Source: Deltaproteobacteria bacterium
Lineage (GTDB): Bacteria; UBA10199; JACPAL01
DNA: 64,000 nt
Reading direction: 5' to 3'
Assembly: GCA_016180855.1 (NCBI GenBank)
Contig: JACPAL010000002.1
Location: 245,788 to 309,787 of the forward strand
Part shown: positions 16,898-18,199 of the stretch, in pieces
Position numbering within the stretch: position 1 is the stretch's first letter
Layout of the letters: each line of letters starts with the position of its first letter
Translations under genes and position numbers: made by a program
The notes under the pieces: model-generated
What the model was told of the DNA's origin: nothing
Databases searched by the model: none
Seen by the model: only the letters and a program-made list of their open reading frames with translations

Positions 16898-18199
16898 ATG
16901 GAACTTTGGGGTTTTGAACGAGAGGGTGAGACCGTCCCAGGGGAGCGGTTTGGGTTGTTTTTTGGACCACCTCCTGGTAGTTTGGGACGTGCTGCTCCAG
17001 TTGCAGCGGCTGTACCAGCGGCCAATCCGAACGAGGTTCAATTCAATTATTCCTGGCTCGGTGACGATGGGAGCTCCGAGGGGGGCGATTTTAAGGCTGA
17101 TGTTGCACCAGGTGCGGATGTTACAAAGGGACAGGGGCTCGAGAAATTTTTCGAACATCTAAAAGGCAAATTTGAGAAAAAGGGGAGCGGTAAGGTTAAA
17201 GGTTTTTTTGAGCGAGGTGGAAAGACATACGACCTTGAGATCGGACAGGCAGTTCCTAAGGGTAAAAAGAACGGTGTCCTTGGGATCGCTTCAACGAGCG
17301 TGACCCCCAGAGAGGAGAAGAAACCGGAGGCAGCCGCACAACCGGGTGCCAAACCGGAGCCTCCAAAACAGGGTGAGGCCGCGCCGGGCGACGAAAAGAT
17401 AAAAAAATTGGAGGGTCAGGTCGACGAGATGTCCAAGCTCCTGAAGGCGATGAGTGAGGATCAGGAAAAGGATGAGAGGAGCGATTTTGACAAGAGCCTC
17501 GACCGCGCGAATGGCACGATGGAACGGTTTGGTCGGTTGGGAGAGACGAGTCATTATGCGATGGATGCGTGGGGCTCCATGACAACACCCCATAATGGCG
17601 GTTCGATGCTTGGTATTCAGGGACTGGGCGGCAATTTTCAGATGGGGGTCGGTGGCGGTATGGCCGACTTTGGAATGGCCGGCGGCATTGGTGGTATCGG
17701 TGGTATCGGGGGTGGGCTTGGCAGTGACGTCTATTTTGATGCAAGCTGGATCGGTACCTCCGGCTCGACGCTTGCCGATACGCGGGCCCAGAATCGGAAA
17801 CTGGAGGCGCTGATCAATTTCCTCATCGCCCAGATCCTCATGGGGAATATCGATGCGATCACGAGTGCGATGATCGCAATCTCGCGTAAATCGAAACAGA
17901 CCTTGATTCGCTCTTCCGTCTCGATGCTCCGGGCGATGCAGCATTATGACAAACAGCAAGATGCATTGACGGATCAGTTTGAGAAGATGCAGCCGAAGGG
18001 GAACGAAAGTGCCAACGACTTTTCCAGACGCTCCACGGCGTTGAGTCTCAAACTGAACGGCATTGCGGCAGCCCGGCAGATGTTTATGAATCAGCTCCGT
18101 GACGTGATGACAATGACGGAAGAGGTTGGGAACGTTGAAAAATCGCTGCTCGATATTACGGGACAGTTCAGGAGACATTATTCGAGGTTCAACGTTTGA
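16898..18199 (+). CDS. candidate T3S substrate (433 aa), minor-translocator or axial-protein-like
   Basis: N-terminal motif LWGFEREGETVPGERFGLFFG is shared with the 1027-aa protein. One Gly-zipper hydrophobic segment (GGMADFGMAGGIGGIGGIGGGLG) is present. The C-terminal heptad segment ...NVEKSLLDITGQFRRHYSRFNV is paralogous to the C-terminus of the next protein. Confidence 0.6.
   Translation: MELWGFEREGETVPGERFGLFFGPPPGSLGRAAPVAAAVPAANPNEVQFNYSWLGDDGSSEGGDFKADVAPGADVTKGQGLEKFFEHLKGKFEKKGSGKVKGFFERGGKTYDLEIGQAVPKGKKNGVLGIASTSVTPREEKKPEAAAQPGAKPEPPKQGEAAPGDEKIKKLEGQVDEMSKLLKAMSEDQEKDERSDFDKSLDRANGTMERFGRLGETSHYAMDAWGSMTTPHNGGSMLGIQGLGGNFQMGVGGGMADFGMAGGIGGIGGIGGGLGSDVYFDASWIGTSGSTLADTRAQNRKLEALINFLIAQILMGNIDAITSAMIAISRKSKQTLIRSSVSMLRAMQHYDKQQDALTDQFEKMQPKGNESANDFSRRSTALSLKLNGIAAARQMFMNQLRDVMTMTEEVGNVEKSLLDITGQFRRHYSRFNV

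Follow-up and report, generated by a model that had tools for sequence, protein, structure and literature searches.

Ancient paralogs with a common predicted C-terminal coiled-coil, encoded beside translocator-type chaperone genes in a non-flagellar type III secretion locus, are candidate tip/translocon-class substrates

The subject of this analysis is a pair of adjacent genes in a 64,000-nucleotide stretch of DNA (contig JACPAL010000002.1 of assembly GCA_016180855.1, positions 245,788 to 309,787; hereafter the window, to which all coordinates refer unless a related locus is named). It comes from an uncultured bacterium, and the source organisms are metagenome-assembled genomes (MAGs) labelled “Deltaproteobacteria bacterium” by NCBI. 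The first gene, an open reading frame (ORF) of 433 codons, is named here paralog A and the second, an ORF of 517 codons, paralog B. They open a cassette of five genes in the order A, B, TPR1, C and TPR2, in which TPR1 and TPR2 encode tetratricopeptide repeat (TPR) proteins of the SycD/LcrH type and C, hereafter paralog C, a protein of 287 residues. The first 10.7 kb of the window are occupied by a non-flagellar type III secretion system (T3SS) cluster, and the positions of the cassette genes and of the features discussed with them are collected in Table 1.

The last 36 residues of paralog A (NQLRDVMTMTEEVGNVEKSLLDITGQFRRHYSRFNV) and of paralog B (NMLRTVLTTYEEIQNVTKSYLDIQGAQIRHLSRFNT), which both fall within the ranges singled out in a preliminary description of this DNA, are identical at 21 of 36 positions and display hydrophobic residues at a spacing of 3-4 residues, in a heptad-like manner. 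The resemblance is longer than previously reported, with 28% identity over 207 aligned positions covering approximately the 200 C-terminal residues (BLASTP, E=1e-20), and the paralogy proposed in the preliminary description is borne out, A and B being paralogs of ancient origin. The two 150-nt stretches of DNA encoding their ends share merely 80 of 150 nucleotides (53%), which rules out a recent duplication or gene conversion and characterizes A and B as old paralogs held similar at the protein level. Among the orthologues of both paralogs, the motif N..KS.LDI.G...R..SRFN is invariant in six sequences.

Table 1. Positions of the cassette genes, their C-terminal domains and associated features in the window
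Feature	Position	Strand	Basis or remark
Paralog A gene (433 aa)	16898..18199	+	ORF; orthologues P0001-P0004; family profile E=1e-55
Family domain at the C-terminus of paralog A (H1/H2/H3; residues 282-433)	17741..18196	+	AlphaFold2 model
36-residue segment, first copy (end of helix H3)	18089..18196	+	Translation
Paralog B gene (517 aa if started at TTG 18196)	18196..19749	+	ORF
C-terminal family domain of paralog B	19294..19746	+	Family profile E=3e-45
36-residue segment, second copy	19639..19746	+	Translation
TPR chaperone 1, SycD/LcrH (class II) type	19781..20386	+	TIGR02552 LcrH_SycD E=3e-22
Paralog C gene (287 aa), hydrophilic, distant superfamily member	20399..21262	+	Profile comparison
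TPR chaperone 2, SycD/LcrH (class II) type	21274..21861	+	TIGR02552 E=5e-24
401-aa protein gene	15157..16362	+	Family hmmsearch 26 bits
1027-aa protein gene	12060..15143	+	N-terminal motif common with paralog A
Promoter-like motif CAACTCG-N14-CGATA (contains GCCGATAA)	16849..16875	+	23 nt 5' of paralog A start codon
Terminator-like hairpin, strong (13-bp stem, 11 G-C pairs)	16652..16681	+	Sequence
FliA/WhiG-family sigma factor gene within T3SS cluster	1521..2357	+	TIGR02479 E=1.8e-43; Pfam sigma-70 r2, r4

The C-terminal domain of paralog A (152 residues) was modelled by AlphaFold2 from an alignment of 51 sequences, with a mean predicted local distance difference test score (pLDDT) of 91 and helices at residues 7-33, 38-82 and 91-151. 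The shared domain, of about 145 aa, is predicted to consist of a short helix, a tight G-N/D-x-D turn and a long antiparallel hairpin reaching the C-terminus; the helical nature formerly attributed to the shared segment is thus supported, the last helix being 61 residues long. In the model of full-length paralog B, the domain forms a C-terminal bundle (372-515) preceded by a disordered start (1-62), a helical region (60-274) and a disordered linker of approximately 100 residues (278-380). Foldseek comparison of both models with the PDB retrieved no match at E<=0.001, the hits being generic coiled coils and F-BAR domains, and the top match of the domain, the coiled-coil of IpaB (residues 74-242), is non-significant (E=0.08). 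The hairpin formed by H1, the turn and H2 is the most hydrophobic stretch of the protein in 66 of 82 family members. Averaged over 19 residues on the Kyte-Doolittle scale, its hydrophobicity is borderline in paralog A (1.56), the maximum in paralog B is 1.18 and the family median 1.23, and a value of at least 1.6 is attained in 9 of the 82 members, the Kyte-Doolittle scale being the only one used.

Upstream of this domain, paralog A displays an N-terminal motif (MxLWGFE..PGERFGLF), a low-complexity region and a Gly-rich hydrophobic stretch (approximately residues 235-275). For paralog B, the sequence GTTTGATGGCG fits a start at ATG 18199, which overlaps the stop codon of paralog A as TGATG. 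This codon, and not TTG 18196, is probably the true start, giving a product of 516 aa, because a database protein 99% identical to paralog B (P0005) has 516 residues; the stop-start overlap itself suggests a translational coupling of the two genes.

An exhaustive search with a hidden Markov model of the C-terminal domain against 1.84 billion representative proteins recovered 98 proteins at E<=0.001 and 65 at E<=1e-10, each of the 98 standing for a representative cluster. Word-indexed searches gave a handful of relatives, and a run with the domain profile short fragments only. Most of the members are 350-620 residues long and nearly all of them originate from metagenomes. The C-terminal position of the domain is strict: of 93 members, 90 have at most 25 residues beyond its end, and within the final five positions 65 of these 90 contain an aromatic residue. 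The family comprises two orthologous groups: A-type proteins, with a MxxxGFE..PGERFGL motif and the Gly-rich stretch, and B-type proteins, which start with MSTxNxPxVxV and have a long helical N-terminal half. Three members (P0036, P0041 and P0052) hold the domain internally, followed by 300-400 residues of Cys-rich repeats, and N-terminal Sec-like hydrophobic segments are present in two of these three and in two others (P0080 and P0094 are also listed). Searches of Pfam, NCBIfam and PDB sequences, conducted with both proteins, their C-terminal domains, 90 members of the family and the profile of paralog C, found no Pfam or NCBIfam model for the family, the matches being coiled-coil noise (Suppressor_APC, MCP, designed helical repeats); Pfam gave no meaningful domain for the 90 members, and nothing about the lineage or the family emerged from literature searches. 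Although unannotated, the family represents a known kind of protein.

The preliminary description had likened the C-terminal segment to the conserved terminal helix of flagellar rod and hook proteins and to EspA-type filament proteins. For comparison, FlgB/C/E/F/G/K, EspA, EspB, EspD and EscF sequences were taken from annotated E. coli genomes (O157 Sakai in the case of EspA) and aligned by hhalign with a family profile of 51 sequences. The probabilities amounted to 0.2% for the flagellar C-termini (score 10.9), 0.2% for EspA, 0.3% for EspB, 0.1% for EspD and 3% for EscF alone. No Flg_bb_rod, Flg_bbr_C, EspA or needle domain was detected by Pfam at E<=1 in the C-terminal domains, nor was any Pfam match to the N-terminal Flg_bb_rod motif in full-length A and B or in the 90 family members. 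The link with flagellar rod and hook proteins and the link with EspA were both rejected on these two grounds, the low hhalign probability and the missing Pfam match. The novel extracellular structure that had been envisaged is not required either, as the locus encodes an injectisome-type apparatus and its relatives contain a candidate needle gene. The stronger form of the previous proposal, a homo- or heteropolymeric filament or sheath that would extend the needle in the manner of EspA, SseB or Bsp22 by polymerisation through the C-terminal helix, seems quite unlikely to us: a long helical hairpin does lie at the extreme C-terminus, a weak SctF-like signal is found at the profile level (see below), and the presence of several paralogs that share a terminal domain is reminiscent of the flagellar axial family, but the EspA comparisons were negative, A and B exceed known filament subunits 2-3 times in size and contain disordered linkers of about 100 residues, and the adjoining chaperones belong to the translocator type (class II), not to the CesAB or SseA type.

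The SctF-like signal arose from needle proteins. PrgI, BsaL and YscF appeared in two PDB profile searches with E values of 0.17-0.9, and hhalign of the family profile with an alignment of seven needle proteins gave a score of 25.2 (P=4.5e-4) and a probability of 33%, below any accepted threshold. Column-shuffled versions of the needle alignment scored 9.4 +/- 1.7 (maximum 14.8, n=150) and its reversed version 10.7, and thirteen other proteins or segments of the window scored 8.6-16.2 against the unaltered needle alignment. Of the seven needle sequences, two were checked against search output, PrgI in part and EscF in its last 50 residues.

Paralog C joins the family at a greater distance. Its profile, built from 7 orthologues, aligns with that of the A/B family across 120 columns at an hhalign probability of 79% (E=1.6e-5), and hmmsearch gives 13.9 bits. 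Against the needle alignment, the paralog C profile reached a probability of 36% over its last 38 columns, end to end (shuffled null 10.9 +/- 2.5, maximum 21.6; reversed 12.7), so that paralog C and the A/B family both score 25-27. A probability of 24% was obtained with the 186-aa needle candidate of related loci described below. Paralog C ends with ...KQVIANFRG, to be compared with the needle ending ...IIQNFR, and paralog C and its orthologues end with ...IANFRG, ...IQNMRT or ...IQNFKVT. Taken together, these comparisons are suggestive of a weak SctF-like similarity which, within the locus, would be specific to the A/B family and paralog C. Since it is hydrophilic and has a needle-like ending, paralog C is the best candidate for a tip protein. 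The 401-aa protein encoded upstream of paralog A matches only the H1-turn-H2 half of the family domain, by its residues 265-351 (26 bits; hhalign 32-56%), and is a possible fourth, partial relative.

The T3SS cluster comprises, in order, the end of SctJ, two small ORFs, the FliA/WhiG-family sigma factor and the SctI-like, FliG_C-like, SctL, SctN, SctO, SctP, SctQ (two genes), FliO-like, SctR, SctS and SctT genes. In related contigs, a 92-aa gene, a 186-aa gene and a TPR gene precede SctJ in a CdsE/F/G-like order; on a near-identical contig (L004, 2207-3599), the third protein has 141 aa and a weak match to the needle chaperone CdsG. In the 186-aa protein, a needle-like end (...HNMIQNMRGM) is preceded by a long N-terminal extension rich in Gly, Pro and Ala; the identity of this protein as SctF was not confirmed by hhalign (probability 3%) or Pfam (no match). 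The FliG_C-like (2846-3841) and FliO-like (8530-8847) genes belong to this non-flagellar cluster, whose ATPase (4432-5790) is about equally close to EscN (410 bits) and FliI (402 bits); these features hint at a deep-branching or flagellum-near type of T3SS.

Two transcription units separated by the terminator-like hairpin lie beyond sctT, the first made of the 1027-aa and 401-aa genes and the second of A, B, TPR1, the 287-aa gene and TPR2. The 1027-aa protein, for which no Pfam or NCBIfam family was matched, shares with paralog A the N-terminal motif M-x-L-[YW]-GFE-x5-6-PGERFGLF (encoded at 12060-12140 and 16898-16980, respectively) and contains a Gly/Ala-rich hydrophobic block (approximately residues 565-745), and we regard it as a candidate for a membrane-inserting partner. 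A motif of the GFE..PGERFGLF type is also found in many paralog A orthologues and may act as a secretion or chaperone-recognition signal replacing the PxLxxP chaperone-binding motif. Between sctT and these units, an AAA_14/DUF4143 ATPase gene is inserted on the minus strand (10701-12005). PIN/PhdYeFM and ParE toxin-antitoxin genes are also inserted there in a related MAG (L001, 1263-1930 and 6704-8596), and locus L013, which is more distant, has no such insertions.

The five-gene cassette is followed on the opposite strand by the gene of an FHA-sigma54 activator (21830-23236, minus) and then by that of a PEGA-domain Ser/Thr kinase. Eight related loci were fetched (one from GTDB genomes, six from JGI metagenomes and one from an NCBI MAG), and the cassette with the opposite-strand activator is kept in all eight, wherever the contig reaches. 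On one 120-kb contig, it stands directly after sctT, without the 1027/401 pair. The TIGR02552 scores of TPR1 and TPR2 are below the curated equivalog cut-off; among PDB sequences, TPR1 matches SycD, PcrH and IpgC, and TPR2 matches PcrH, AcrH and IpgC in addition to SycD, whose residues 11-145 align to its residues 44-176. With a T3SS locus and two adjoining genes for SycD/LcrH-family chaperones, the part of the preliminary description which regarded A and B as type III secretion substrates becomes plausible for substrates having a role in assembly.

The cassette proteins of the related loci are only 20-45% identical to those of the window, and the maintenance of the cassette at such low identity fits structural parts and not variable effectors. 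The proposal that A, B and C are translocated effectors or toxins, sharing a C-terminal targeting or oligomerisation domain and devoid of structural role, could draw on their variable and partly disordered N-terminal regions, on the fusion of the domain to Cys-rich tails and the Sec-type N-terminal signals of some members, and on the absence of detectable homology to known structural parts. It nevertheless seems unlikely, given that the whole cassette is strictly syntenic beside the apparatus genes in every related locus, that the dedicated chaperones are of class II and not of class I, and that no enzymatic or host-mimicking domain was found among the 90 members scanned. Very unlikely, in our view, are unsecreted cytoplasmic coiled-coil regulators or scaffolds of the T3SS, such as gatekeeper or ruler-like proteins, or else a different role for the TPR proteins. 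The all-helical coiled-coil nature of the proteins and the kinase and sigma54 activator encoded next door would suit this reading, and Pfam scans recognised no gatekeeper SctW in the window; yet no HrpJ, YopN or TyeA Pfam match was obtained, an SctP-like ruler is already encoded at 6309-7229, the disordered Ser/Thr-rich N-terminus is typical of substrates, and the TPR proteins can be aligned with translocator chaperones along their entire length.

The substrate operons also share a promoter-like element. The bipartite motif CAACTYG-N14-CGATA has 3 matches in the window against 0.03 expected, located 5' of the ORF 588-986 (539-565), of the 1027-aa gene (12005-12031) and of paralog A (16849-16875), and it recurs with a spacing of N13-15 at orthologous sites of two related loci (L001, 2148-2174 and 8729-8755; L007, 4601-4626 and 8716-8742). 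The -10 half of the copy preceding paralog A, GCCGATAA, corresponds to the classical sigma28 -10 element, and the FliA/WhiG-family sigma factor encoded in the cluster likely reads this motif. Judged from these sites, the substrate operons look like a late regulon of the cluster-encoded sigma factor, as in flagella. Elements resembling the -24/-12 type of sigma54 promoters are present on the plus strand 5' of paralog A (TGGCACCGGGCTTGA, 16787-16801) and of the sigma factor gene (TGGCACGAGAACTGC, 1479-1493), the former (TGGCAC-N5-TTGA) being 97 nt 5' of paralog A.

The window is of chromosomal origin and further contains PrkA/YeaH/SpoVR genes, tRNA synthetases, MurJ and a trp operon (trpE/G/D ... 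trpC/F/B/A, 38648-50909) split at 41833-47404 by three large ORFs (755, 867 and 269 aa) without Pfam match. Scanning the window with Rfam and for tRNA genes yielded no hits.

From these observations, we consider with moderate confidence that A, B and C are middle substrates of tip/translocon class that are chaperoned and secreted by a divergent non-flagellar T3SS, and that their common C-terminal coiled-coil is probably an assembly module at the needle end. Structural parts are preferred over effectors because of the strict conservation of the cassette, the translocator-type chaperones, the free C-terminal helix and the disordered N-termini. In the proposed sequence of events, A, B and C would be bound in the cytoplasm by the two SycD/LcrH-type TPR chaperones of the same operon, exported through the needle by means of their disordered N-termini, and co-assembled at the needle end via the three-helix coiled-coil of about 145 residues, the last helix of which, as in needle protomers, ends at the protein C-terminus. 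Contact with the target membrane would then involve the H1-turn-H2 hairpin, which is moderately hydrophobic, together with the Gly-rich segment found in paralog A; owing to these two features, paralog A is the best membrane-contacting candidate.

Several results weigh against this assignment to the tip/translocon class. Neither the secretin nor SctV, SctU or SctD turned up in the available DNA. In paralog B, no segment attains a hydrophobicity of transmembrane strength, and the family median is just above its maximum. A PxLxxP motif (searched as [PV].L..P) is present in none of the five substrate candidates. Comparisons at the level of sequence, profile and fold gave no significant match to known tip, filament or translocator proteins: the SseC, IpaB, IpaC and EspB families gave no Pfam match in A, B or the 90 members, and the tip proteins LcrV, IpaD and SipD are absent from the PDB sequence, profile and Foldseek match lists. 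The sub-threshold needle similarity falls in two differing registers in the A/B family and in paralog C. Finally, the members with an internal domain and Cys-rich repeats and those with Sec-like segments imply that the domain is not restricted to type III secretion substrates.

A bolder version of the tip/translocon reading, which we think doubtful, would derive the distal end of the injectisome, in this lineage, wholly from the paralogs of one family (A, B, C and perhaps the 401-aa protein), their C-terminal hairpin descending from needle protomers or sharing ancestry with them and their expression being driven by the FliA-type sigma factor. This arrangement would parallel that of the flagellar axial family, whose rod, hook, junction and cap paralogs are produced under sigma28.

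No components of T3SSs evolve faster or are harder to trace than the tip and translocon proteins, which in environmental lineages are usually left hypothetical. What is added here is a family with a confidently predicted fold, a conserved five-gene cassette with two translocator-type chaperones, and an internal paralogy among A, B and C. If the needle-like signal is true, the distal components would be linked to the needle protomer in parallel to the flagellar axial family, and a one-family distal end, if real, would for the first time allow the evolutionary origin of tip/translocon proteins to be traced. As a practical use, the profiles can serve to annotate these genes in metagenomes, and any cultured representative would come with named candidates. 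Abby and Rocha reported that tip and translocon proteins are untraceable across T3SS families, their similarity being undetectable (PMC3459982), and for this reason an unannotated family in the tip/translocon slot is expected in a new lineage. Less expected are the paralogy among the presumed distal components and the weak needle-like signal, both in a cluster with FliA-, FliO- and FliG_C-like genes.

Each of the known systems resembles the present one in part. As with the flagellar axial proteins (FlgB/C/F/G/E/K), several presumably exported paralogs have common terminal heptad helices, and as with flagellar late genes, a sigma28-type -10 element precedes the paralog A operon in a locus with its own FliA-family sigma factor; unlike these axial proteins, A and B have no conserved N-terminal rod motif. 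The SctF needle protomers (PrgI, MxiH, BsaL, YscF, PscF, EscF and SsaG) likewise have a helix-loop-helix that runs to the C-terminus, with an N/D-P loop and an aromatic residue 2-4 positions from the end. They are, however, small (70-90 aa, helix-P.(D/N)P loop-helix), whereas A and B, with 433 and 517 aa, are five to six times larger, combine helices of 45 and 61 residues with a third helix, have no T3SS_needle_F Pfam match and are accompanied, in relatives of the locus, by the separate 186-aa candidate needle gene and its CdsG-like TPR chaperone gene.

The SctA tip and filament proteins (LcrV/PcrV, IpaD/SipD/BipD and EspA/SseB/Bsp22) are hydrophilic, secreted and built on a long antiparallel coiled-coil, and their C-terminal helix docks on the needle. 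They are encoded with translocators, and paralog C recalls them by its hydrophilic character and needle-like end, but the partner here is a TPR chaperone of class II type, in place of LcrG, CesAB or self-chaperoning. The translocators with class II chaperones (YopB/YopD-SycD, IpaB/IpaC-IpgC, EspD/EspB-CesD, CopB/CopD-LcrH_1 and CopB2/CopD2-LcrH_2) share with A and B the tandem arrangement of genes of about 430 and 520 codons beside a SycD/LcrH-family gene in a T3SS locus, the coiled-coil content and, for paralog A, the hydrophobic hairpin. They differ from them by a hydrophobicity of transmembrane strength, which B and most members do not reach, by the PxLxxP motif, by the hhalign probabilities of 0.1-0.3% obtained with EspB and EspD, and by the position of the chaperone genes, which here are 3' of their presumed clients and not 5'. 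To our knowledge, mutual paralogy of the major and minor translocator has not been described for the known pairs. The nearest organisational parallel is Chlamydia, where two LcrH chaperones and two translocator sets coexist and CopD binds the needle protein CdsF (PMC4068993), the locus analysed here likewise containing two chaperone genes.

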